DNA of 64,000 nt, from contig DDWQ01000014.1 of the NCBI GenBank assembly GCA_002345745.1, positions 4,439 to 68,438 on the forward strand. Reading direction: 5' to 3'. The notes below the pieces were generated by a model. It ran no database searches and had not been told where the DNA came from. It saw nothing but the letters and a program-made list of their open reading frames with translations. Source of the stretch: Candidatus Moranbacteria bacterium UBA2282 (GTDB lineage Bacteria; Patescibacteriota; Minisyncoccia; Moranbacterales; UBA2206). The translations under genes and the position numbers were made by a program. Positions 5,136 through 58,165 of the stretch are shown here, piece by piece. Position 1 is the stretch's first letter. Every line of letters begins with the position of its first letter.

Positions 5136-6974
5136 ATGTCTGATATTGACGATATAAAATCACGCCTGAACATCGTTGATGTGTTGGGAGGATATATCCG
5201 CTTGGAAAAAGCCGGTGCTAATTGGCGCGCTAATTGTCCTTTTCATAATGAAAAAAGCCCTTCTTTTATGGTGAGCGAAGATAAACAGATTTGGCATTGT
5301 TTTGGTTGTCAAAAAGGCGGGGATATTTTTGGCTTTGTGATGGAGATTGAAGGATTGGAATTCCGTGAGGCGCTGAATCTCTTGGCAGAAAAAGCTGGTG
5401 TTGAATTGAAAAAAGTTAATCCCAAACAGGCGGCAGAAAAAAATCGTACATTAGAAATTTTGGAAATGGCGACTAAATTCTATCAAGCACATTTATTGCA
5501 AACTCCAGCCGGTAAAAAAATTATGGAATATCTGCAAGAGCGGGGTATCAATGAAGAATCAATCAAAGATTTTCGTTTGGGCTATGCACCCAATGGTTGG
5601 AAAAATACATTGAATTTTTTATTAAAAAAAGGTTTTTCGGAAAATGAAATTGCTAAGACAGGACTATTGGTGGAAAAAAATAGACAGGAAACAAATTCTA
5701 CAAACTACCAACCACAAACTACCAACTATTACGACCGTTTTCGAGACCGCATAATTTTCCCCATTGCCGATACTAATGATAAAATCGTGGGCTATAGCGC
5801 TCGCGTAGCGCCAGGTGGGGATGAGTCGCAGGCTAAATATGTTAATTCGCCGGAAACAGAAGTCTATCACAAGAGTAAAATTTTGTATGGCATCAATCGT
5901 GCGAAGAATGGAATTAGACAAAGCGGAACTGTTCTGTTAGTGGAAGGTAACACTGACGTTATCGCGTCTCATCAAGCAGGTCTCGCAAATACGGTGGCTG
6001 TTTCTGGCACTGCTTTGACGCCAGAGCATATAAATATTATAAAAAGATATGCCACTGATATTCGAATGTGTTTTGATATGGACAACGCTGGAGAATTAGC
6101 CACGAAAAAAAGCATTAAGCTTTGTTTTGAAAAGGAAATTAATGTGCATGTGGTGCAATTACCATCGGGCAAGGATGCGGCAGAACTCGCTAAAAATAAT
6201 CCAGAACTTTTGCGTAGTGCGGTGGAAAATGCTAAGCCAGCGATGGAATATTTTTTTAATGCTGTATTTGCAAAGTATAATAAAGAAAAAGTAGAAGATA
6301 AGAAAAAGATAACACAAGAACTTCTTGAGATGATTAGTTATTTAGCAAACGAAATTGAAAAAAGTCATTGGTTGAAAAAATTGGCTACTGAGATTGACGT
6401 GAATGAAAATACATTGACGGATATGCTAAAAAGAGCTAGTCTTGAAAGTAGAGTAGTTACACCTTCACAAGACTTGTCTCAAGAGAGCAAGATCTTCGCC
6501 CCTAGTGGCAAAATAGAAACTCTCACAACGGATCTAATTGGATTGATGCTAGTATATAGCAATGTTTGGAAGGAAGTGTTGGAAAAGGAAAATTTATCCT
6601 TTATCCCAAAAGATAGCCTTCTAATTATTATGATTCAAAAAGGTAGGGAGTTTCGTTTTAGTTTTGATGAACTAATTAAAAATATTGATGTGCCCTTTGA
6701 CAAATCAAGGGCTGAAAAAATATATTTTGAAAGTCGCTATCGGGTTGGATTGGACAATGAGCTAGAGGAGGTTATCTTGGAGCATCCTTTGCTAGAAGCA
6801 AAAAATAGATTGCAAAACATCAAATATGAAATTAATAAAAACTTGCTAGATAAAATATCCAAGGATCTGGATGTTGCTAAAAAAAATTCAGATAAAGAAG
6901 CTGTAAAAATCCTAATGGAGGAGTATACTAAAATTAATAAAGAACAATCTTTATTAAACAAGGAAATAAATTAG
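5136..6974 (+). CDS. dnaG: DNA primase
   Basis: Zn-ribbon CPFHNEKSPSFMV...WHCFGCQKGGD; TOPRIM region (LVEGNTDVIA). Confidence 0.9.
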   Translation: MSDIDDIKSRLNIVDVLGGYIRLEKAGANWRANCPFHNEKSPSFMVSEDKQIWHCFGCQKGGDIFGFVMEIEGLEFREALNLLAEKAGVELKKVNPKQAAEKNRTLEILEMATKFYQAHLLQTPAGKKIMEYLQERGINEESIKDFRLGYAPNGWKNTLNFLLKKGFSENEIAKTGLLVEKNRQETNSTNYQPQTTNYYDRFRDRIIFPIADTNDKIVGYSARVAPGGDESQAKYVNSPETEVYHKSKILYGINRAKNGIRQSGTVLLVEGNTDVIASHQAGLANTVAVSGTALTPEHINIIKRYATDIRMCFDMDNAGELATKKSIKLCFEKEINVHVVQLPSGKDAAELAKNNPELLRSAVENAKPAMEYFFNAVFAKYNKEKVEDKKKITQELLEMISYLANEIEKSHWLKKLATEIDVNENTLTDMLKRASLESRVVTPSQDLSQESKIFAPSGKIETLTTDLIGLMLVYSNVWKEVLEKENLSFIPKDSLLIIMIQKGREFRFSFDELIKNIDVPFDKSRAEKIYFESRYRVGLDNELEEVILEHPLLEAKNRLQNIKYEINKNLLDKISKDLDVAKKNSDKEAVKILMEEYTKINKEQSLLNKEIN

Positions 6975-8795: not shown

Positions 8796-9848
8796 ATGGA
8801 AAATAGATTTGCAAAAAGGGCTATTTTAAGCCAGGAAATACTTCAAAAAATAACTAAAATTGATGAATTTAAAGGTTTATGGAAGGGTAGTTTGAGGTTG
8901 AGTCCACAGACATTGGGCAGGCTCAAACGCAGTGTGCTCATCACTAGTACAGGAGCTTCTACGCGCATTGAAGGCTCAAGGATGTCTGACAAAGAAGTGG
9001 CTAGACTTATCGCTGGTTTGAAATCAACACCACCCAAAGGTAGAGATGCACAAGAGGTGGCTGGTTACGCTGATCTTTTAGGAAGAATTTTTGATAATTG
9101 GAAAACTCTTAAAATTACTGAGGGTCAGATTTTACATTTCCATCAGATCCTGCTTAATTTTTCCGAAAAAGACAAAACTCACAAAGGCAACTACAAAACA
9201 TCTGATAATATGGTAGTTATGAGAAAAGTTGATGGCACGGAGGTTGTAATTTTTGAGCCGACCAAGCCATATCTTACTAAAAAAGAAATGGATGATGTTT
9301 TACACTGGCTAAGTGGCGAAATGAAAAAAGGGGAAACGCACCCACTCATTTTGATTGCTAATTTCATTTTTGAATTTTTAGCAATCCATCCTTTTCGTGA
9401 TGGAAATGGCCGGCTTTCCAGAGCACTGACCACACTGTTGCTTCTTAAATTTGGTTATACTTATGTCCCGTATGTTTCATTGGATGAAATTATTGAAGAA
9501 AAGAAGATTGATTATTATTTGGCTCTGCGAAAAACTCAGTCCAAACATAAAACAAAAAAAGAGGACATTACGCCATGGCTAAATTTTCTTTTAGATGCAC
9601 TTATTGAACAAATTAAAAGAGCTAAAAGCATAATGGAAGAGGATCAACCGGAAAAGTTGCTTTCGGAAAAACAACTTCTAATTTATCAGTTATTTCAAGT
9701 CGACACGCTGAGCGTTTCAGAAATTAGTAGTCTTATTAAAGACTCAATTCCAATGGTGACATTAAAGCAGTCGCTGTCACGCTTGGTGGCTTTGAGATTG
9801 ATTGAACGAGTTGGCATGGGCAGGGGCAGTCGATATAAAAAATTATAG
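8796..9848 (+). CDS. Fic family protein (AMPylation-type Fic fold) with C-terminal winged-helix-like domain
   Basis: Fic motif HPFRDGNGRLSR; upstream inhibitory-type motif STRIEG ([ST]xxxE[GN]); 350 aa. Confidence 0.8.
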   Translation: MENRFAKRAILSQEILQKITKIDEFKGLWKGSLRLSPQTLGRLKRSVLITSTGASTRIEGSRMSDKEVARLIAGLKSTPPKGRDAQEVAGYADLLGRIFDNWKTLKITEGQILHFHQILLNFSEKDKTHKGNYKTSDNMVVMRKVDGTEVVIFEPTKPYLTKKEMDDVLHWLSGEMKKGETHPLILIANFIFEFLAIHPFRDGNGRLSRALTTLLLLKFGYTYVPYVSLDEIIEEKKIDYYLALRKTQSKHKTKKEDITPWLNFLLDALIEQIKRAKSIMEEDQPEKLLSEKQLLIYQLFQVDTLSVSEISSLIKDSIPMVTLKQSLSRLVALRLIERVGMGRGSRYKKL

Positions 9849-10056
9849 ATGTTTTTTCAAAGCAGTCCTGACTTCTTCCAGGATTCGGATTCGTATTACA
9901 AAAGAGCCTGATTAAGGCTCTTTTATGCTATTAAATCGGTTCGAACATTTGATACCTTGAGCTTACATTTGAACCACTCGAGTAACTTTTATTATAATTT
10001 GACATAATTAAACTTAAGCGTTAAACTTTACTTATAATAAATCATAAATAAACTTT

Positions 10057-11187
10057 ATGTCACAAGAAGATTTTAAGGCAGGAATTTACAAGCAACAATA
10101 TCAGTATAAGAGTTTTTCCCCTTCTGCCATAACTTCATATAAATGGTCTGATCCAAAAATCGATGTTTTGCTAGAAGATGCGGTAAGATATTTGGGTGAA
10201 CTGAATGCATATTCTCTACTTGTTCCTGATGTTGATTTTTTTATCAGAATGCATATTTTTAAGGAAGCAACAACTTCAAGTCGAATCGAGGGAACCAAAA
10301 CTGGTATGGAGGAAGCGTTGCTTCCAAAAGAAGAAGTTAATCCAGAAAGAAGAGATGATTGGGCTGAGGTTCAAAATTATACTCGGGCTATGAATTATGC
10401 TATCAGTGAACTTAAAAAATTACCACTCTCAATTAGATTACTAAGAGATACTCATAAAATTTTAATGACTGGTGTTCGTGGAAAATATAAAACTCCTGGA
10501 GAAATAAGAACGAGTCAAAACTGGATTGGCGGTTCATCTTTGCAAGATGCTGTTTTTATACCACCACATCCAAGTGAAGTTCCCGAGTTGCTAAGTGATC
10601 TTGAAAAATTTTGGCACAATAAGCAAGTGGCTATGCCTCATCTTATTAAAATTGCCATTAGCCATTATCAATTTGAAACAATCCATCCATTTTTGGATGG
10701 AAATGGCCGTATAGGAAGACTTTTAATTACACTGTACCTTGTAAATGAAGGTATCTTGCGGAAACCTACATTGTACTTGTCAGATTTTTTTGAAAGAAAC
10801 AAAGGGTCGTATTATGATGCATTGACTATGGTGAGAAAGTCTGATGACCTAGAACAGTGGATAAGTTTTTTTCTTATTGGTATTTCTGAAACAGCAAAAA
10901 AGGGGAAAGTTACTTTTGAGAAAATCATTGCTTTAAGACAAAAGTCAGAACAAAAGACCATTAGTTTTGGCAAACGAGCAAAAGTATCACAAGAATTATT
11001 GAAACATTTATACTCACAGCCAGTTATGAATATCAAACAAATAATGGAAAAGTTGGATATAACTAGTCCATCAGCTAATACTCTTGTTAAACAATTTCAG
11101 CAAGCAGGTATTCTTAAAGAGCTTACAGGATTTAAAAGAAATAGACTTTTTGTATTTGATGAATATCTTAAATTATTCAATAGGTAA
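10057..11187 (+). CDS. Fic family protein (paralog of 8796-9848)
   Basis: Fic motif [12 protein letters not shown]; inhibitory-type motif SSRIEG; 376 aa. A nested GC-rich hairpin (GCCACGA...TCGTGGC) follows at ~11232-11297. Confidence 0.8.
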
Positions 11188-14154: not shown

Positions 14155-14856
14155 ATGAAAAAAATACAAATAAAACTAAATACTAGACTTAAAAAGGCGA
14201 AATTGAAAAAAAGTGCTTATATTAGGTATTTTATGCAAAGATTTAATATTATCACTGAAGATATCAAAAAAAGCATTGAACCAGGGCTACTTAATAAACA
14301 TCAAGTAACGGTTGTAATGCTGGTTAGTTTTATTGTATTTACAAGTTACATTATTTTAATTAAACAATATTATTATCAAAATTTTTTGCAAGTGCGTCAG
14401 GTTGAGCAAAAAAGTGTGCAGGAATTTAAAGCAGAAAAGTTTGAAAAAGAGCTAGCAACTCTAGTTGCGGGTTATCCAATTGAAGCTATGGTTCCATATA
14501 TTGCTAAAAAAGATAGAGACACCGCTGCATATCTAATTGGAATCGCTAAAAAAGAAAGTAATTGGGGCAAAAGAAAACCCGTGCTAGATGGAAAGGATTG
14601 TTATAATTATTGGGGTTTTAGAGCTACACGCGAACGGATGGGCAGTGGCGGACACACGTGTTTTGATAATCCGAAAGAAGCAGTCAATGCTATTGCAAAT
14701 AGAATTGATCAAATTATTGTGAGAAATGATGTGAAATCAGCAAAAAATATGGTTGTTTGGAAGTGCGGTTCAAATTGTGATGTGACTGGCGGACAAGATG
14801 CAGCTGACAAATGGATAATCGATGTGGATATGTATGCAAAAAAAGTCTTGAATTAG
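14155..14856 (+). CDS. membrane-anchored GH73/FlgJ-like (ESxWG...YNYWG) putative peptidoglycan glucosaminidase, paralog 1
   Basis: N-terminal TM. IAKKESNWG and YNYWGFRA resemble the FlgJ/AcmA catalytic Glu motif and the YNLFG motif. Four conserved Cys (DC, CFD, KCGSNC). Paralogs at 39461 and 41635. Confidence 0.5.
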   Translation: MKKIQIKLNTRLKKAKLKKSAYIRYFMQRFNIITEDIKKSIEPGLLNKHQVTVVMLVSFIVFTSYIILIKQYYYQNFLQVRQVEQKSVQEFKAEKFEKELATLVAGYPIEAMVPYIAKKDRDTAAYLIGIAKKESNWGKRKPVLDGKDCYNYWGFRATRERMGSGGHTCFDNPKEAVNAIANRIDQIIVRNDVKSAKNMVVWKCGSNCDVTGGQDAADKWIIDVDMYAKKVLN

Positions 14857-14952
14857 AAAAGTGTTTTGTTTGTGCTAAGTATATATAAAAAATAACCCCG
14901 CATTTATGGGGTTATTTTTTATGATGTGAAGAAAGAAAACAAATCCTCTCGG

Positions 14953-15966
14953 TTAATTTATTTGTTCTGTTTGAAGCATTAATCTTTTCCAATCAGTATT
15001 AAGTGGCCAACAAGTTACGATGGTAAGATTTTGTTTGGAAGTTTCTTCAAAGATGCGCTGATCATCTGGGCTAACGACTTCTTTGTTAGTGACTTTATAT
15101 TTATACTCCAGTGTTTTACCATTAGCTTGTGTTGCAGTTATTACAATTTCATCACCAGCTTGCAGATTATTTAAATCTTTGAAAATGTAATTATATTCTC
15201 CATCAGACCAAATGTAATTGCTACTATGTCCCGTAGTCACTACATTACCAGCTTGCCCAGGGATTCCTGTTTGTGGATAGCGTACCACGCCTTTTTTCAG
15301 GTCTTCCTGTAAATCAGCTTCAAGGGTGCTAACAGACCAGAGGACAGGTGCGTCAACATTAATCTTGGTAATAATAACTTTGTAGCTTGGTCTAGCATCG
15401 CCTTTTTTGCTGGGATCATAACCATTTCTGATTTCATTAGAATCGTCAAATCCATCCTCATCAGTATCAGCTTTCTGTGGATTGGTGCCATGGCGTAGCT
15501 CAAGATAATTAGGTAAACCATCATTATCCTGATCCAGAGCATAGTCGTTGGCAGTGACGCTCAAGCCAAATTCTTCCTCCCAAATATCGGGCAAGGTATC
15601 TTTATCCAAATCAAGCCTGCCTGCTCCAATGGGATTGTAACCAGCTTTGATCTCCGCACCATCTGAATAACCATCCTTATCTGTGTCAGCTTCTTGGGGA
15701 TTAGTGGCATACTTATATTCAGCTAGTATGGTCAAACCATCATTATCTAGATCTTGTTGTAAATCTTTTTCATTTTCAACTTGAATGTCATATTTTTCTA
15801 GCCAAACATTAGGGATGCCATATTTTTCCTGGGAAGGCAGATTAACTGAACCATTAATAAATCTTCCAATATTACTAATATCAAAGTTAAGGAGATAAAA
15901 AATGATTGCAAAAATAATAAGAAAGGCTGAGATAATAGATGGACGTTTTAGTAGTTTAATTTGCAT
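14953..15966 (-). CDS. sortase family transpeptidase with thrombospondin type-3-like Ca-binding repeats
   Basis: N-terminal TM. Four DxDxDG repeats (DNDGLT, DTDKDGYSDG, DQDNDGLP, DTDEDGFDD). Sortase His (VTTGHSS) and catalytic Cys in LTIVTCWP. Confidence 0.7.
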   Translation of the reverse strand: MQIKLLKRPSIISAFLIIFAIIFYLLNFDISNIGRFINGSVNLPSQEKYGIPNVWLEKYDIQVENEKDLQQDLDNDGLTILAEYKYATNPQEADTDKDGYSDGAEIKAGYNPIGAGRLDLDKDTLPDIWEEEFGLSVTANDYALDQDNDGLPNYLELRHGTNPQKADTDEDGFDDSNEIRNGYDPSKKGDARPSYKVIITKINVDAPVLWSVSTLEADLQEDLKKGVVRYPQTGIPGQAGNVVTTGHSSNYIWSDGEYNYIFKDLNNLQAGDEIVITATQANGKTLEYKYKVTNKEVVSPDDQRIFEETSKQNLTIVTCWPLNTDWKRLMLQTEQIN

Positions 15967-16052
15967 AACATTTCATAAAAAATCCCTTCTCCAACTGATT
16001 TTGTTTATGTTGGGAAGGGAAATTTTAAAATAATTTAGTTGAAAGGTATAGT

Positions 16053-17672
16053 TTATTTTTGGTAAGCCAACTTTTTTGTTTTTATCCAAATATAGATCAG
16101 CAAAGCTGTAATGGATAATAGGGCGGCTAGATAGATAGCAATGCTGCCACTACCGGTGGCGGGTGCCACTCGTTTACCTTTGTAACCGAAGTCAGCTTTC
16201 ATATAAGAATCGTGATCATTTTTCAATGTGACATCGGTTTTATTATTTTTTGTGTCATCTGGATCATAAGTTTGGGTATATTTATCAACGTCTTCATTTG
16301 TAACATTAATAATGTAATCATTTTTACATAGACGTTTAAAAGAATAATATCCCTTATGATCAGTGGTAGTACGATAAGTATTACCGTCAGAAGTTATTTT
16401 TACACGTATCCCGCTAAGACCTTTTTCGCTATCGTCTTGCACTCCATCACCATTAGCATCTAGCCAGACGTAATCGCCAATTTCTCCCTTACATTCGTCA
16501 TCTTCTGGCTTTGGTCCTGGTCCTGGTGGAGGTGGAAGTGGAGGTGTGTTTTCTAATCTAACCGATGAATTATCACTGTCGGTTAGATTGGCAGTATTAT
16601 TTACTGGTGAAGCGGTTACTTGAGCAATATTTATATAGCTTGCTGTTACAGATGAATCTGTGCAAGTATAATTGAAAGATTCTTTTGGGTCGAAATAATC
16701 TCCAGCGTATAAATTTTTTGTTTGACTAGCACTTCTATTACAGTTAGAAACTCTAGGGTCAGAAATAACTACATTTTTTAAAATTGCATTACCTGTATTT
16801 GTAACAGTTATTTTGAAAGTTGCTGAACCACCATTTGTAACTGTTTGAGTGTCATCACCATTGTCATTGTCGTTCTTGATAATAGTAATAGCAGGATGCA
16901 ATACATTTACTTGCACTCTTGTACTACATGTTACGCTGCCACCGACTCCTTTTGCGGTAGCTGTGTAGAGAGTTGTTTGTGTGGGGCGGACTATTCTTGT
17001 TCCACTCACATTCACACTTCCAACACCTTGATTGATAGAAAAACTAGTTGCGTTAGTGGATGACCAAGTTAAAGTTGATTGACTCCCAGCATTAATGGTA
17101 GCTGGATTAGCATTGATAGCACAAGTAGGAGCTGGAATTACAGGATTTATTTTATCTAAAACAATAGAATTTATAATAATACTTTCCATAGCATCTCCGG
17201 AACCAACCTTATTATAACTCTCAGTATACCATTTTCCAGTGAAGATATTGGCATATTTGTGACGAGCTTTAAAAGTGACGTTACCTGATAAATTGATTAT
17301 TCCTAAATCATAAACAGCTGTTTTTGTAGAAGTAGCATTGCCACCTAAATCAGGAACAGTATAATCCTTGCCGTTGACAGTTACAATCGCCACTTCATAT
17401 TTTTGAGAAGCAGTCAAGCTACCGACATTTACTTTGACTCGATAATTTCCCGAAGCCACGTTGACTGTCTGCGTGCCGGTTGCCCCGTTACAACTATTCA
17501 TTGGTCCACAGTAAGTGGCCAAATTATAAGGCACAACATCCTCCTTGCAAAAGCAATTAGGAGCAAACATTTTCGCACTTGACCCGAAGGTTACGGTGGT
17601 TGCAGCTTGTGCTTGAGGAGCAGCAATAAGAGCGCTGACAAGTAGCAAGGCAATTAAAAGTAATTTTTTCAT
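16053..17672 (-). CDS. secreted surface protein (DUF11 repeat, SdrD-B/Cna-B-like domain) with C-terminal sorting-signal-like tail
   Basis: Signal peptide MKKLLLIALLLVSALIAAPQAQA. DUF11-like TVTNTGNAILKNVVISD. Pro-rich linker PPLPPPPGPGPKP. SdrD-B motif GDYVWLDANGDGVQD...GYYSF. C-terminus VAPATGSGS, then hydrophobic TM, then KTKKLAYQK. Confidence 0.7.
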   Translation of the reverse strand: MKKLLLIALLLVSALIAAPQAQAATTVTFGSSAKMFAPNCFCKEDVVPYNLATYCGPMNSCNGATGTQTVNVASGNYRVKVNVGSLTASQKYEVAIVTVNGKDYTVPDLGGNATSTKTAVYDLGIINLSGNVTFKARHKYANIFTGKWYTESYNKVGSGDAMESIIINSIVLDKINPVIPAPTCAINANPATINAGSQSTLTWSSTNATSFSINQGVGSVNVSGTRIVRPTQTTLYTATAKGVGGSVTCSTRVQVNVLHPAITIIKNDNDNGDDTQTVTNGGSATFKITVTNTGNAILKNVVISDPRVSNCNRSASQTKNLYAGDYFDPKESFNYTCTDSSVTASYINIAQVTASPVNNTANLTDSDNSSVRLENTPPLPPPPGPGPKPEDDECKGEIGDYVWLDANGDGVQDDSEKGLSGIRVKITSDGNTYRTTTDHKGYYSFKRLCKNDYIINVTNEDVDKYTQTYDPDDTKNNKTDVTLKNDHDSYMKADFGYKGKRVAPATGSGSIAIYLAALLSITALLIYIWIKTKKLAYQK

Positions 17673-17892
17673 AGATTTGTTATTTAGTTAAATTATTTAT
17701 TATTTATGATAACTGAATATCCTAGCATATATTTATATTTTTGTCAATAGTAAATATGTGCCAGTGGTAATAATGGCTAATTTGTGGCATAAACAGCTAA
17801 TTAAAAAAATAACAGTAATAGGTCTTCACAAAGTTTAAAATATACGGTATGATATAAGCTCACGATTATTTTTTATAAAATTATATAAATTT

Positions 17893-19440: not shown

Positions 19441-20103
19441 ATGAAAAAGAAGATTTTAATTAGCTCGGTTATTTTAGTAATTATCCTCGTCGCTGGCGTG
19501 GGCTTTTGGAAGTGGAAAGGTGTGAAAAACGCTGAGGTTCTGAGGGATGGTCAAGTAAAACAGGTTGTGCAAAATGAGAAGCAGACTCAACAACAAGATG
19601 ATAATCAGGCACAAGTTGATATAGCTAGTTGGAAGACTTACAAAAATGATGAATACGGATTTGAAATGAATCTTCCAGGAAACATTAATAAATGGCATAT
19701 CGAAAAAAAGGTTTTTTCAAAAAAAGATAATATACATAACAGTGAGACAGTAACGTTGTATTTTAATTATGATTTAGATCAAAGTATAGCACGGGCTGAA
19801 AATGACCCATCTCTTGGAAAAATAAATGATATGAGCTTATGGTATATAAATATCATTCCAATACGCACTTGGAGGCCAGATGCTTGCAGTACTACTAAAG
19901 TTGAAGGTCCATGTCGTCAGGGGGTTGTTTTGGGAAAAAACAACAAATATGTCTTTGAGTCGGGATATCCAAATGTTGAAGGCACTGGCAGTTTATGTGA
20001 AAAATATGCTGACACGCAAAAGGAAATTTGCAGTGTGGATAGCAACTTTTATGTACAGACTAATGAAATAGGTCAATGGAAATTCAAAACAATTAATAAA
20101 TAA
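19441..20103 (+). CDS. hypothetical membrane-anchored or secreted protein
   Basis: N-terminal TM; Gln-rich linker; no motif recognised. Confidence 0.45.
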   Translation: MKKKILISSVILVIILVAGVGFWKWKGVKNAEVLRDGQVKQVVQNEKQTQQQDDNQAQVDIASWKTYKNDEYGFEMNLPGNINKWHIEKKVFSKKDNIHNSETVTLYFNYDLDQSIARAENDPSLGKINDMSLWYINIIPIRTWRPDACSTTKVEGPCRQGVVLGKNNKYVFESGYPNVEGTGSLCEKYADTQKEICSVDSNFYVQTNEIGQWKFKTINK

Positions 20104-20169
20104 CAGTTGGGTATATCAAAAATATTGAAAGAATTGTTTAGTTGAATTTAGCAATTAGCCTATATTATA

Positions 20170-20228
20170 CCTCCTTCAATATTCTCAATAAGAATAGGAA
20201 TATTGAAGGGGGTGTAATAAATTTTTTT
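20170..20228 (+). terminator. 15-bp inverted repeat hairpin followed by T-run (putative terminator)
   Basis: CCTCCTTCAATATTC ... GAATATTGAAGGGGG, then TTTTTTT 9 nt downstream. Confidence 0.4.
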
Positions 20229-20327
20229 AGTATCTTAACAACTAAATACAAAAAGGAGGGGCGATGAGAAGATAATTTATGTGTGAATAGGCGTATTATT
20301 GAGAAAATCTAAAAATGGAGGCAACAG

Positions 20328-21017
20328 ATGAAAAAAATTTGTAGCTGTCTGATTGGGGTAGCAATTTTTTTGTATTCGGTAATTTTTGCACAGGCTGAAT
20401 GCACAGGAGTTTGTTTGCAATATTGTGGCAATCCAGGCGGTAGTCATGGATATTGCGTGGATTATATTTATGACAGGCTAAAAGTTAGGCAATCTGGAAA
20501 TGCAGTAAATTGGATCGGAACGGATGGCTTGAGTATGGATGAGGTTCAAGTGAATGATGTGGCAATTTTTGGTGCAACTAGTTCAAATCCTTATGGTCAT
20601 GTTGCTGTAGTAGATAGTGTTGAAGGTGATAATATTACGATAAGTGAGTGGAATTTTGGATATCCTTCGAATAATTCAGTGGAGTTGTCTTGCGGGGTAA
20701 CAACACAATATCACAATACAACCACAAGAACTATCGCAAAAAGTAGCGTATCAAGATTCTGGCGGCCAGAAACTGTAGCTCCTTGCGAGTCTAATATCCA
20801 GATAACGCTTCAGATTGTTGGTAATGTTGGCTGGTATCCGAATTATCTATCATGTGTTTCGGCAAATGCTTGGTATAATATCATTGAAGAAAATGGCGAA
20901 AAACTTGCTACATCAGCAAATGAGGGTCCAACGATTTGTTGGAGTATTCAGTATTCTTTATATGGCGTTGATTATGATGTTATTTTTGGATCTCAACCAT
21001 TAACTTGTCATCAATAA
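20328..21017 (+). CDS. secreted CHAP-domain protein (putative peptidoglycan amidase or peptidase)
   Basis: Signal peptide. Cys in GYCVDYIY and His in YGHVAVVDSVEGDNITISEWNFG, typical CHAP arrangement. Confidence 0.6.
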   Translation: MKKICSCLIGVAIFLYSVIFAQAECTGVCLQYCGNPGGSHGYCVDYIYDRLKVRQSGNAVNWIGTDGLSMDEVQVNDVAIFGATSSNPYGHVAVVDSVEGDNITISEWNFGYPSNNSVELSCGVTTQYHNTTTRTIAKSSVSRFWRPETVAPCESNIQITLQIVGNVGWYPNYLSCVSANAWYNIIEENGEKLATSANEGPTICWSIQYSLYGVDYDVIFGSQPLTCHQ

Positions 21018-21030
21018 TAGGAGGTGCTTA

Positions 21031-22308
21031 ATGAAAAGTATCGCAATGTTGGTTTTTTCAATCTTACTTTTTGTTGTAAATATTTCGCATGCAGGGTGTG
21101 GCGATATATCTATAGTGACTGTTAACTCAAACTATGAAAATCCTGTTACCAGTCTTTCTCTCCCCAACCTCCAAATCAAAGAATTCAACATCCACGACAC
21201 ACCCGACACTAAACTGGTTGAGAGCCAATCAATTATGAATGTCGGACAAACATATGAAGTTCATGTCTGGCCAGTCTCCAAAGAGGCTGATTGTACCAAT
21301 GGCATCGAAGCTGGCAAAGACACAGTGGAAACTGATACTTTCTACAAAATCGCCACAAGCAAAGACGAAGGAGAATGGATTTTCCTCCATCGCAACTACA
21401 CCCAATGCGTGAATATGGATCAAGATGATTCCAAAAAAGAAATCTTCAATTTTACTGTCCCACCTGAAGCTTCTGGACAAAGAATATATTTCAAATCCAA
21501 AGTTGACTCAACAGGTGAAGTGCGAGAAACTAATGAACACGACAACTGGTCGGATGTTGAATGGTATCCGGTCGAAGGATATTGTTCGAGTTGTCCCGAC
21601 CTGGCTGTGCCCTATATCGGCCTTACTGCTGGAAAAACCAGTGTTGATCTTGGTGGCAAATTCGGCTTGGAAGTAGACGTAATGAATCAAGGAAACGCTA
21701 ATTGCCCAATCGATATTCGTGGTGCATACTATCTTAAAGTGCCCAATGCTACAAATTGGACACAAGTGGCTGATGACGGCAGTGAAGCAAGTGACCTTGA
21801 TGTTGGTGAATCTGAACGAGAATATACTATGGATTCTCCGTTCACCGCCAACCAAATCGGTGCTTGGCAAGGTATGTTCTGTGCTGACCATCTCAATGCT
21901 GTTAGAGAACAAGACGAAAGCAATAACTGCAAAATTTTTATATTTAACGTTAATCCGGTTGGACCGGATTTAATTATTTCCAGCCTTGGATTTAAAGAAG
22001 GCCTTTCCTTTAAGAGAAAGATCAGTTCTCACCCTTGGGCTATCGTGAAGAATATCGGTAACAAAACTCCAGCCTCCAATATTCGCATCGCTTATTATAT
22101 CGACGGACAGTATCGCGATGATGATGGGGTTTCCGCCGATGAACTCACTCCCGGTCGTGATCAATATGAAAGCGTCGACAACAACAATATTAGACTTGGT
22201 GACTGGGGCACAAGAACGCTCACTGTCTGTGTCGATACCAAGGGTCAAGTACCAGAGCTTAATGAAGGCAATAACTGTGCTTCAGTAAGGTTTACAGTTA
22301 TCAGATGA
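21031..22308 (+). CDS. secreted protein with CARDB-like domains
   Basis: Signal peptide. Repeated C-terminal-of-domain motifs NEHDNWSDV, ESNNCKIFIF and NEGNNCASVRFTV resemble CARDB E-x-NE-NN endings. Confidence 0.5.
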   Translation: MKSIAMLVFSILLFVVNISHAGCGDISIVTVNSNYENPVTSLSLPNLQIKEFNIHDTPDTKLVESQSIMNVGQTYEVHVWPVSKEADCTNGIEAGKDTVETDTFYKIATSKDEGEWIFLHRNYTQCVNMDQDDSKKEIFNFTVPPEASGQRIYFKSKVDSTGEVRETNEHDNWSDVEWYPVEGYCSSCPDLAVPYIGLTAGKTSVDLGGKFGLEVDVMNQGNANCPIDIRGAYYLKVPNATNWTQVADDGSEASDLDVGESEREYTMDSPFTANQIGAWQGMFCADHLNAVREQDESNNCKIFIFNVNPVGPDLIISSLGFKEGLSFKRKISSHPWAIVKNIGNKTPASNIRIAYYIDGQYRDDDGVSADELTPGRDQYESVDNNNIRLGDWGTRTLTVCVDTKGQVPELNEGNNCASVRFTVIR

Positions 22309-55228: not shown

Positions 55229-58165
55229 ATGGAAAATTACAATCCCAAGGAAATTGAGGTAAAATGGCAGAAAAAATGGCTTGAACAAGCCTCAGAAAAA
55301 ATTGACAAGGATGATACTAAGAAAAAATACTATATTTTGGATATGTTTCCATACCCATCTGGAACAGGCTTGCATATGGGGCATACAGAGAGCTATACAG
55401 CTAGCGATGTTTTCTATCGTTTTAAAAAGATGCAAGGTTTTAATGTCTTACATCCACAAGGCTTTGACTCATTTGGTTTGCCGGCGGAAAACTATGCTAT
55501 CAAAACAGGTATTCCTCCAACTGAAACCACTAGAGAAAATATAGATAATTATATTCGCCAGATGAAATCTTTGGGTTTCAACTATGATTTTTCGGAGCAA
55601 GCTGTTACAAGCGATCCAGAATATTACAAATGGACACAATGGATTTTCACAGAGTTCTATAAAAACGGATTAGTATATAAAAAAACTCAAAAAACCAACT
55701 GGTGTTCTTCTTGTCAAACGGTTATTGCTAATGAACAAGTAGTTGAAAATAAATGTGAACGATGCGGAACGGAAATTGAGCAAAAAGAAGTTCCAACGTG
55801 GTTTTTCAAAATCACAGATTTCGCTGAAGAATTGATTGCCGACTTGGATAATGTTGATTGGCCGGAACATACTAAAAAAAATCAACGAAATTGGATTGGG
55901 AAAAGTGAAGGAGCAAGCGTAAAATTCCAAATTGAGGTCAAAGGCTCTAAGAGCCCAATTGGGCTCTTAGAGCCTAACGTTGTCGAGGTATTTACTACGA
56001 GAGTAGATACTATATTTGGTGTAACATATTTAGTTGTTGCTCCAGAGCATGAAATAATTTCAAATTTAAAATCTAAAATCTCAAATTTTGATAAGGTTTC
56101 CGAGTATATTGAAAAATCAAAAAACAAAACTGAGTTGGATAGAATGGAAGCCAAGGAAAAAACAGGTGTAGAATTGGAAGGCATCAAAGCGGTCAATCCA
56201 TTTAATGGTGAGGAAGCGCCGGTTTTTGTGGCTGACTATGTCTTGGGAAATTATGGCACCGGCGCCGTGATGGCTGTGCCGGCGCATGATGAAAGGGATT
56301 TTGAGTTTGCGAAAAAATATGAATTGCCAGTCAAGCAATCAATCACGCCAAATATTAAAAATTATCAAACAACAATTAAAGTTCTTGATATTTTAAAAAG
56401 TATTAACGAAGTAGCACAAGAAAGAAATGTCAAGATTTGGTTAACTGGAGGATTATCTATTCCATTTTATTCTAGCGTTATTTACAGAGCACATTCAGAT
56501 TTAGACTTAATCGCTAAAGATGAAAATGACTTTAAGATGGCAATTCATATTTTTGAAGATTTAGGTTTTGAAAAAGTAAGAGAGAAAAAACTATCAGAGA
56601 GTCTAACTAATTTTATTTACAAGAAGGATGATATTGAAATTGATATTGGTCCAAATAAATCAGAATTTGATTTAAGGGATGATGATTTTGAGGAAGACTT
56701 AAAGAGTTATTCTAATTTTTCAGCTTTAACCCTAAGTAAACGGTTTATCAGGAGCGTAAAAGAGGTTCAGTTGAAGAATAGAAATGAAGATAAGGACAAA
56801 ATGGATCAGGAATATTTGGATGGTAAAATCTTGACTGACGATGGTGTTTTAGTTAATTCTGCTGAATTTACTAGTTTAACTTCAGAACAAGCGCGGGAAA
56901 AAATGACGGAGTGGTTGGAAGAAAAAGGCTTGGGCAAAAAAGTTGTGAATTATCGCTTACGCGATTGGTCAATTTCACGGCAAAGATATTGGGGTTGTCC
57001 GATTCCAATTGTATATTCACCAGATGGTGAGCCACATTTAGTTTCTGAGCAACATTTACCATGGATTCTGCCCACGGATGTGGATTTTGTGCCCACAGGT
57101 GTTTCACCGTTGGCCAAATCAGAAGAATTGAAAAAAAGAACGGAAGAAATTTTCGGAAAGGGCTGGACTGCAGAATATGACACGATGGACACCTTTGTGG
57201 ATTCGTCTTGGTATTTCTTGAGATATCCGGATGTGCATAATACGGAAGAATTCTGCTGTTCAAAAAGAAAAGAATGGTTGCCAGTGGATATGTACATCGG
57301 AGGTGCTGAACACACCTATATGCATTTGCTGTATGCCAGATTTTTCGTGAAAGCCCTGCATAAAATTGGACATTTGAATTTTTCAGAACCATTTTTAAAA
57401 CTTCGTCATCAAGGTATGGTCTTGGATAAGGATGGCAAGAAAATGTCCAAATCCAAAGGTAATGTGATTAACCCGGATGATATGGTGAAAAGATTCGGCG
57501 CGGACGCAGTTAGGACATATATGCTATTTGTGGCACCACTTGAAGATGCGGTGATGTGGAATGAAGAAAACATAGTGGGCGTGCGAAGATTTTTGGATCG
57601 AGTTTGGAATTTGTATGTGGATTTTTTAAATAATTTTGACAGTCAAAGAAATGTTACACATAGAGAATCCGATATACAATTAGCAAAAACTATAAAAATA
57701 GTAACAGATGATCTAGATAATTTTAAATTTAATACAGCTGTGGCATCGATGATGAAATTTGTTAATTATCTGTATGGGAGAAAAAACAAGGATGGAGAAT
57801 TAGGAGTTGTAAATATAGAAATAGCATTTGCTTTCTTAAAATTATTACATCCATTTGCTCCTCATATGACTTCGGAATTGTTTGTTAAAGTGCAAGAACG
57901 CGACGATAGCTTAAGCGGTAAAAATAATATTTTAAATGAAGACTGGCCAGAACCAAAAAAAGAGCTTTTAATTGATGAAAAAATAAATTTAGTTATTCAG
58001 GTCAACGGTAAAGTGCGCGATATGCTGGAGGTTGATGCAGAAATTACCGAGGATGATGCAAAAAAAGTTGCCATGGAAAGTGAAAAAATAAAAAATCACA
58101 TTAGCGGAAAAGAAATTAAAAAAATTATTTATGTCAAAAATAAACTCGTGAGCATTGTAACTTAA
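55229..58165 (+). CDS. leuS: leucine--tRNA ligase (with ~150-aa lineage-specific insertion after the CP1 editing domain)
   Basis: HMGH (HIGH) motif; ZN1 Cys pairs; AVMAVPAHDERDFEFA; YRLRDWSISRQRYWG; KMSKS; 978 aa. Confidence 0.9.
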   Translation: MENYNPKEIEVKWQKKWLEQASEKIDKDDTKKKYYILDMFPYPSGTGLHMGHTESYTASDVFYRFKKMQGFNVLHPQGFDSFGLPAENYAIKTGIPPTETTRENIDNYIRQMKSLGFNYDFSEQAVTSDPEYYKWTQWIFTEFYKNGLVYKKTQKTNWCSSCQTVIANEQVVENKCERCGTEIEQKEVPTWFFKITDFAEELIADLDNVDWPEHTKKNQRNWIGKSEGASVKFQIEVKGSKSPIGLLEPNVVEVFTTRVDTIFGVTYLVVAPEHEIISNLKSKISNFDKVSEYIEKSKNKTELDRMEAKEKTGVELEGIKAVNPFNGEEAPVFVADYVLGNYGTGAVMAVPAHDERDFEFAKKYELPVKQSITPNIKNYQTTIKVLDILKSINEVAQERNVKIWLTGGLSIPFYSSVIYRAHSDLDLIAKDENDFKMAIHIFEDLGFEKVREKKLSESLTNFIYKKDDIEIDIGPNKSEFDLRDDDFEEDLKSYSNFSALTLSKRFIRSVKEVQLKNRNEDKDKMDQEYLDGKILTDDGVLVNSAEFTSLTSEQAREKMTEWLEEKGLGKKVVNYRLRDWSISRQRYWGCPIPIVYSPDGEPHLVSEQHLPWILPTDVDFVPTGVSPLAKSEELKKRTEEIFGKGWTAEYDTMDTFVDSSWYFLRYPDVHNTEEFCCSKRKEWLPVDMYIGGAEHTYMHLLYARFFVKALHKIGHLNFSEPFLKLRHQGMVLDKDGKKMSKSKGNVINPDDMVKRFGADAVRTYMLFVAPLEDAVMWNEENIVGVRRFLDRVWNLYVDFLNNFDSQRNVTHRESDIQLAKTIKIVTDDLDNFKFNTAVASMMKFVNYLYGRKNKDGELGVVNIEIAFAFLKLLHPFAPHMTSELFVKVQERDDSLSGKNNILNEDWPEPKKELLIDEKINLVIQVNGKVRDMLEVDAEITEDDAKKVAMESEKIKNHISGKEIKKIIYVKNKLVSIVT

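Follow-up and report, generated by a model that had tools for sequence, protein, structure and literature searches.

The stretch analysed here, referred to as the window, comprises 64,000 nucleotides (nt) of Candidatus Moranbacteria bacterium UBA2282 (contig DDWQ01000014.1), and positions refer to it and its encoded proteins unless a locus of another genome is named. The window has a G+C content of ~36%, holds nearly all of its genes on the plus strand and carries a gene set typical of a small-genome bacterium, including pyruvate kinase, DnaG, RpoD, F-type ATP synthase, LeuRS, MetRS and Lgt. Two adjacent open reading frames (ORFs) lie on the minus strand: 16053-17672, encoding a protein of 539 amino acids (aa) whose current annotation is 'hypothetical protein', and, 86 nt downstream, 14953-15966, encoding a 337-aa sortase. 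The closest named relatives of both proteins occur in Candidatus Moranbacteria/Moraniibacteriota and Parcubacteria. A first-pass annotation, made from the letters of the sequence, had described the two ORFs, both of which we find as described, and had taken them for a dedicated sortase-substrate pair. Our reading is that the two genes, substrate then sortase, probably form a self-contained surface-display module of the Moranbacteria, within the Candidate Phyla Radiation (CPR, or Patescibacteria); judging from sequence comparison, we put its probability at roughly 0.7. The features of the two genes, with model confidence given as the predicted local distance difference test (pLDDT), are as follows.

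16053..17672, minus strand: substrate gene, predicted to encode a secreted, multi-domain, adhesin-like protein of 539 aa with a C-terminal sorting signal (ORF, Pfam, AlphaFold2, Foldseek)
17604..17672, minus strand: predicted Sec signal peptide MKKLLLIALLLVSALIAAPQAQA, of the form MKK...AQA followed by A, with predicted cleavage after AQA (sequence, canonical n-h-c pattern)
17145..17603, minus strand: N-terminal domain, aa 24-176, which contains four Cys, matches nothing in Pfam and is kept in Moranbacteria and Campbellbacteria homologues
16902..17126, minus strand: Ig-like beta-sandwich domain, aa 183-257, unannotated (AlphaFold2, pLDDT >90)
16566..16895, minus strand: CLIPPER_2 (DUF7507/DUF11-like, CnaA-like) stalk domain, aa 260-369, single copy (Pfam PF24346, 32.8 bits against a cutoff of 27)
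16494..16550, minus strand: proline-rich linker NTPPLPPPPGPGPKPEDDE, also given as NTPPLPPPPGPGPKP (sequence; AlphaFold2 pLDDT <50)
16173..16484, minus strand: SdrD B-like (CnaB-type, Ca-binding) wall-proximal domain, residues 397-481 (Pfam PF17210, E 3.9e-18, 66.1 bits against 29.7)
16152..16166, minus strand: sorting motif A503-P-A-T-G507, with the predicted scissile bond between T506 and G507 (sequence, orthologue conservation, TIGR01167)
16083..16145, minus strand: 21-residue hydrophobic stop-transfer segment SIAIYLAALLSITALLIYIWI, residues 510-530 (sequence; AlphaFold2 helix 509-538)
16056..16082, minus strand: basic cytoplasmic tail KTKKLAYQK (sequence)
14953..15966, minus strand: sortase gene, 337 aa (ORF, Pfam Sortase, TIGR01076; the existing Joint Genome Institute annotation is also sortase)
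15886..15939, minus strand: N-terminal membrane anchor of the sortase, aa 10-27 (sequence; AlphaFold2 helix 7-27)
15397..15783, minus strand: stalk of Ca-binding repeats of the thrombospondin type 3 (TSP3) kind (Pfam TSP3_bac PF18884, E 1.8e-12, 47.3 bits against a cutoff of 25)
14956..15387, minus strand: sortase catalytic beta-barrel, aa 194-337 (alignment, AlphaFold2, Foldseek)
15226-15228, 15010-15012 and 14983-14985, minus strand: catalytic residues H247, C319 and R328
15016-15018, minus strand: V317, the pocket residue at Cys-2

The 337-aa protein has the fold and the catalytic residues of a sortase. Pfam Sortase (PF04203) covers residues 199-333 (77.7 bits against a cutoff of 26.6, E 8e-22), and the generic sortase model TIGR01076 (MEROPS C60 superfamily) is passed with 49.3 bits against 39.35. 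The His and Cys that the first-pass annotation had placed in TTGHSS and IVTCWP correspond to H247 (GHSSNY) and C319 (LTIVTCWP); both are invariant, together with R328, across a 41-sequence alignment and again in 58 locus-derived sequences, and the triad on which the annotation had made its case depend is thus complete. The AlphaFold2 model (mean pLDDT 88, and >90 through the stalk) starts with the N-terminal helix 7-27, continues through repeats that are structured and closes with a beta-barrel. All of its top 50 Foldseek matches are sortases (E 1e-12 to 3e-10, template modelling score (target) 0.5-0.74, 20-26% identity), with about equal similarity to classes A, C, D and E, and the closest solved structures by sequence are sortases of classes E, A, D and C (E 1e-7 to 1e-5). 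Membership of one of the classes A-F of NCBIfam was considered and rejected, as no class cutoff is reached (D, 60-62 bits against 140-165; C, 52 against 160; E, 48 against 160; F, 36 against 166; GN, 35 against 158) and structural similarity is equal across several classes; the class A and class B models are absent from the NCBIfam matches of the sortase. The class assignment by hidden Markov model that had been suggested holds at the level of the superfamily models and fails at that of the classes, the C, D, E, F and GN models all scoring far under their cutoffs. Only 9 residues follow R328, so that the protein stops just after strand beta8, with no hydrophobic segment or C-terminal membrane helix, and the lid motif DP[W/F/Y] was not found, the sole DP ahead of the barrel being that of YDPS, where the last TSP3 repeat finishes. 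These two absences indicate that the sortase is not class C-like.

Between the membrane anchor and the catalytic domain, there are four perfect TSP3-type repeats with DxDxDG...D..E spacing, the number that the first-pass annotation had reported; they start at D72, D94, D145 and D167, and one additional, degenerate repeat DLDKDTLPDIWE (DLDKDTLPDxWE) starts at D119 with DLDKDT. Within the stalk, the 41-sequence alignment shows no variation at W129 or at the Asp residues of the final two repeats (D145-D175). Relatives have 2, 4-5 or 7-8 repeats, the highest numbers being found at loci L087 (8101-9561), L065 and L071. The 486-aa sortase of L087 has seven TSP3-type repeats and contains a duplicated ~110-aa module (IPxxWLxxYxV...DIDGDG...DTDGDG), indicating that the stalk grows through duplication of whole modules. 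These properties fit a spacer of adjustable length between the membrane and the catalytic domain, like TSP3 repeats in other bacterial envelope proteins, and the repeat motif suggests that the stalk probably binds Ca2+.

The 539-aa protein resembles a fibrillar adhesin. Its AlphaFold2 model (pLDDT 78) has its best Foldseek matches in SdrD, UafA, the pilin BcpA and Ca-stabilised adhesins. The N-terminal domain is presumed to be the adhesive tip, and the Ig-like domain that follows is present in 2-6 copies in homologues, as shown by alignment. CLIPPER and CLIPPER_2 are CnaA-like stalk domains typical of fibrillar adhesins (PMC12617251). The signal peptide, the proline-rich linker and the SdrD B-like domain named in the first-pass annotation are all present; its 'DUF11 repeats' are an overstatement, since DUF11 (PF01345) scores 20.7 bits, under the cutoff of 24.6, and CLIPPER_2 occurs once.

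The C-terminus of the protein is laid out as KRV-APATG-SG, 21 hydrophobic residues and KTKKLAYQK, which is the tripartite sorting signal that had been recognised there. The isolated tail passes the LPXTG_anchor model TIGR01167 (18.2 bits against a cutoff of 15.9), aligning from model position 3; the model was not reported in the scan of the full-length substrate. The first position of the motif, Leu in an LPXTG signal, is Ala503 here, A, T or S in orthologues and L in sister clades. In contrast to this position, all 16 of the SdrD_B-type tails keep Pro, Thr and Gly in the motif unchanged, at overall identities of 30-80%, while the residues flanking the motif vary. All 16 homologues that end in SdrD_B show the arrangement FGY..G..-[V/T/I/Y]-[A/T/S]-P-x-T-G-[S/P/A]-G and then continue with a hydrophobic segment and a basic tail, and across 72 tails of the family the hydrophobic segment has a mean length of 20 residues and the tail a mean of 3.8 Lys/Arg. 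Because the tail passes TIGR01167 and the motif is kept in orthologues, these features are more than chance.

The gene order is also conserved between species. Sortase relatives were found in 272 genomes in a scan of one genome per species, labelled almost all Moraniibacteriota, Parcubacteria or Paceibacterota, and 80 loci were analysed, 76 of which had a recognisable sortase and readable upstream DNA. At ~64 of these 76 loci, the same-strand gene directly upstream ends in xPxTG, a ~20-residue hydrophobic stretch and a basic tail, with 3-475 nt between the end of the substrate gene and the start of the sortase gene. In the short-stalk clade (L044-L080), the substrates end ~20-200 nt before position 6001 of the locus, and a relative beyond the 80-locus set, L087, has a YAPNTG tail followed by its 486-aa sortase. 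When the 11 flanking genes of the window were compared with the 80 Moranbacteria loci, none recurred except for weak ABC ATPase matches; dnaG and rpoD recur solely near an unrelated Campbellbacteria sortase. A larger conserved island is rejected on these grounds, and only the two-gene unit travels together. The dedicated pairing put forward in the first-pass annotation is in this way supported in silico.

Two observations concern the short-stalk loci. The short-stalk sortases (285 aa, two repeats) have small substrates of 126-250 aa, which are unlike adhesins and have an extremely high content of His, Lys and Asp, as in ...DRDHKHKHSSKDHKK...LPATG. In addition, a gene for a conserved membrane protein of ~250-290 aa, with WPFGYLTTGV... 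in its C-terminal part, lies ~2 kb upstream of short-stalk sortases (L044, L047, L052, L056, L058, L060-L063, L066-L068, L070, L073-L075 and L078-L080), and this protein may be a third component of the short-stalk module.

Homologues of the adhesin in Campbellbacteria have the common N-terminal domain, Ig repeats and CLIPPER (L085/L086, 4458-8532), and their tails are of the form ...YLSQ[I/V]PYTG[I/F]P, a hydrophobic segment and YK[V/I]K, for which no NCBIfam model matched. The sortase beside them is a different one, of 465 aa; it has no TSP3 repeats and is extended at its C-terminus by a further domain of ~190 aa. Signal and enzyme look like another CPR pair, distinct from that of the Moranbacteria. 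The tail is thus swapped to suit the resident sortase, and this is strong indirect evidence for the tails acting as functional sorting signals.

The first residue of the motif follows the lineage of the enzyme. Among the 62 pairs that satisfy a strict rule, L is the most frequent (37), ahead of T (11), A (7), V (3) and both I and S (2 each), with two more S cases just outside the rule. In a neighbour-joining tree built from the catalytic domains, this residue is specific to the clade: one clade has SPxTG and one APATG, a large clade including the window has [T/A/I]PxTG, a long-stalk clade has LPxTG, and a fifth clade, of ~285-aa sortases with only two TSP3 repeats, has LPxTG with a small number of V and T variants nested in it. 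Two family sortases occur together in a single genome, each beside its own substrate (LPRTG at L048 and VPATG at L061). As far as the sequences tell, APATG is a clade-specific variant inside a family that mostly uses canonical LPxTG, and the motif's description as unusual in the first-pass annotation is accordingly a relative one.

We compared the pocket of sortases paired with small first residues (21) to that of sortases paired with Leu (37). The residue at Cys-2 (317) is Val in 17 of the 21 small-residue pairs and Ser/Thr in all 37 Leu pairs, and there are tendencies toward Val versus Thr at position 298 and Trp versus Phe/Leu at position 326. Viewed by clade, Cys-2 is Val among the [A/T]PxTG enzymes and Ser/Thr among those of the LPxTG clades. 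In the class E sortase SrtE1, the Cys-2 equivalent T318 belongs to the S4 subsite for the first motif residue, with strand beta8 and the beta6/beta7 loop (PMC5148588). Bulkier pocket residues that offset a smaller substrate residue would be a sensible compensation, a hypothesis that we offer as a lead only.

In the mechanism that we propose, Sec would export the 539-aa adhesin, and the C-terminal hydrophobic segment and basic tail would hold it in the membrane. The sortase, anchored by its N-terminal helix, would be set off from the membrane by the TSP3 stalk with its probable Ca2+ sites. Cys319, helped by His247 and Arg328, presumably attacks the Thr506-Gly507 bond of APATG, and the adhesin would then be passed to the amine of a cell-wall precursor and so become covalently fixed to a wall like that of Gram-positive bacteria. 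APATG, with Ala in first place, would be a lineage-specific LPxTG variant that evolved together with the enzyme.

Several points weigh against this reading. The acceptor could be peptidoglycan, the S-layer or another protein, and the case for Ca2+ binding by the stalk comes from its motif alone. The link between Cys-2 and the motif stems from few independent evolutionary events and does not hold for the short clade, whose TPATG and VPATG substrates accompany enzymes with Ser317, so that it may merely reflect shared ancestry. About 12 loci have a sortase with no adjoining substrate, and adjacency is therefore not obligatory. Finally, other substrates or sortases may exist outside the scanned region. 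Inside it, and in favour of the reading, there is a single sorting-signal protein and a single sortase: a six-frame scan of the 64-kb window found no further sorting-signal protein and, with a profile from 41 homologues, no second sortase, and neither was found in the ~14 kb of flank past the window ends (~4.5 kb and ~10 kb).

Among the alternatives, the least probable by our estimate is that the C-terminus is a mere membrane anchor, with APATG incidental and the sortase acting on other proteins. A short xPxTG string can arise by chance, but the invariance of Pro, Thr and Gly amid varying flanks, the recurrence of the arrangement in ~64 loci and the switch of signal in tails whose neighbouring sortase belongs to another family all speak against it; the first-pass annotation had itself named a bare anchor as the finding that would undo its proposal, and the orthologues do not bear this out. 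Only slightly more credible, and still improbable, is a class C-like pilus polymerase that builds a fibre by linking molecules of the 539-aa protein head to tail. Class C sortases are numerous in the top Foldseek matches, the substrate is made of CnaA/CnaB-type domains and matches the pilin BcpA, and pilus loci typically have a dedicated sortase next to its substrate. Against these likenesses stand a single substrate gene, a sortase without the C-terminal membrane helix and the DP[W/F/Y] lid, and the class C model score quoted above, while classes A, D and E match the structure about equally; a YPKN-type pilin motif did not come to notice when the substrate was read, and no pattern search for one was run.

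A more serious competitor, which we nevertheless consider unlikely, is that the sortase is a broad xPxTG housekeeping enzyme, with A, T and S at the first position drifting neutrally and the pair linked by co-expression only. This would agree with the generic LPXTG model being passed by the tail, with the sortases that lack an adjoining substrate and with the short-stalk clade, where L, V and T alternate at position 1 with an unchanged pocket (TPATG at L068 and VPATG at L059, both with Ser317). Characterised sortases, however, generally discriminate at the first motif position, and in this family that residue is clade-specific on the sortase tree and coincides with changes at 317, 298 and 326, and one genome keeps two pairs, each with its own motif. 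The surface-display module could also be taken further, in a tentative proposal to which we give a little more weight than to the broad enzyme and which we still regard as doubtful. The TSP3-stalk sortases would then be an undescribed class restricted to Moranbacteria and close relatives, in which each enzyme has co-evolved with one neighbouring adhesin as orthogonal [A/T]PxTG, SPxTG and LPxTG pairs; a filled S4 pocket (Val317, Val298, Trp326) would select a small residue and exclude Leu, and the Ca2+ stalk of 2-8 repeats would set how far above the membrane the adhesin is fixed in the CPR envelope.

The setting of the two genes includes three candidate expression signals.

17719..17747, minus strand: promoter-like site TTGACA-17-TG-TAGGAT upstream of the substrate gene (consensus scan only)
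15977..16020, minus strand: hairpin and U6 between the substrate and sortase genes, a possible partial terminator whose function is inferred (RNA fold -21.7 kcal/mol, z -3.9)
14885..14922, minus strand: strong intrinsic terminator after the sortase gene, between convergent genes (RNA fold -25 kcal/mol, z -5.7, 15-bp stem and U-run)

Taken together, they suggest a unit in the order substrate gene, partial stop, sortase gene, terminator. In the region 15956-16020 (minus strand), a Shine-Dalgarno-like run, GGAGAAGGGA, overlaps the 3' arm of the intergenic hairpin. The run lies 7 nt ahead of a mini-ORF of 6 codons, MKCYAN, which begins with an ATG at 15976, has its stop at 15956-15958 and overlaps the sortase ATG at 15966. 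The hairpin and mini-ORF could be an attenuation or coupling device that keeps the sortase level under the substrate level.

Envelope-related genes flank the pair on both sides. A membrane protein with a weak FlgJ-muramidase-like match (14155-14856, plus strand) is convergent on the sortase gene and has the terminator in common with it; on the other side, 19441-22308 (plus strand) encodes two secreted proteins, one of 220 aa and one with a CHAP domain, and a 425-aa protein that has a CARDB domain at its C-terminus. In other species, none of these genes is kept beside the sortase. Between rpoD and the sortase region lie two tandem genes of the Fic/DOC family (350 and 376 aa; 8796-11187, plus strand). 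Elsewhere in the window, residues 389-477 (~56393-56659) of the 978-aa leucyl-tRNA synthetase (55229-58165, plus strand), just past the editing domain, match Pfam Aminoglyc_resit, a 2''-adenylyltransferase family, with 25.9 bits against a cutoff of 21, and this stretch may be an inserted nucleotidyltransferase-like domain.

Compared to the dedicated Gram-positive pairs of Bacillus (class D SrtC with LPNTA) and Streptomyces (class E SrtE with LAxTG), the Moranbacteria pair has in common a membrane-anchored Cys transpeptidase with a His-Cys-Arg triad, a substrate with a signal peptide and a three-part C-terminal signal, adjacent genes and a motif that matches the enzyme lineage. It differs in that its catalytic domain is only 20-26% identical to solved sortases and falls under all class A-F cutoffs, in that the motif change is at position 1, rather than at position 2 as in class E or at the Gly after the cleaved bond as in class D, and in the ~130-aa TSP3 stalk on the enzyme. 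A non-Leu first residue with PxTG kept is found in Clostridioides difficile, where the SrtB signals are (S/P)PxTG with a small or polar first residue (PMC4155245), and in the NPXTG-anchored proteins of Ruminococcus, with Asn at the first position (model NF033846). Both organisms are Firmicutes and C. difficile SrtB is a class B enzyme without a repeat stalk, whereas the first residue here is Ala/Thr, or Ser in a sister clade. The substrate shows the order known from Staphylococcus aureus SdrD and from MSCRAMM/fibrillar adhesins, namely an unmatched, presumed binding tip, stalk domains of Ig-like, CnaA/CnaB type and an SdrD B-type Ca-binding domain by the wall anchor; unlike SdrD, it has an N-terminal domain that belongs to no family, no SD-repeat region and APATG in place of LPETG. 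The tandem DxDxDG...D..E repeats, in turn, recall the TSP3 linkers between the membrane part and the extracellular or wall-associated domain of OmpA-like proteins, CglD and MtsD, except that here they are fused to a sortase.

More than half of CPR genomes are reported to carry sortases, and an envelope of Gram-positive-like type has been predicted for these bacteria (PMC6744442). Because sortases are common in the CPR, non-Leu first positions are known and the tail passes a generic model, the pair is less exotic than first proposed and is a modest variation on a well-known system. Searches of the literature, within the library that they covered, found no description of a sortase with TSP3 repeats, nor of Moranbacteria or Patescibacteria sorting signals. 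What is new here, and so far undescribed, is a Moranbacteria-restricted family of TSP3-stalk sortases that fits none of the classes A-F and is accompanied by clade-specific signals.

CPR bacteria are thought to live attached to other cells, and how adhesins are fixed to their unusual envelope has hardly been studied. The family described here supplies concrete enzyme-substrate pairs in hundreds of species, including substrates that annotation pipelines miss, such as the window's 'hypothetical protein'. If the preference for Ala/Thr is not real, the pair is a well-conserved sortase-adhesin operon, ordinary biology in an understudied phylum; if it is real, the enzymes could find use in sortase-mediated protein ligation as orthogonal tools. 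Positioning a sortase relative to the wall by means of a variable Ca-binding stalk would also be new.

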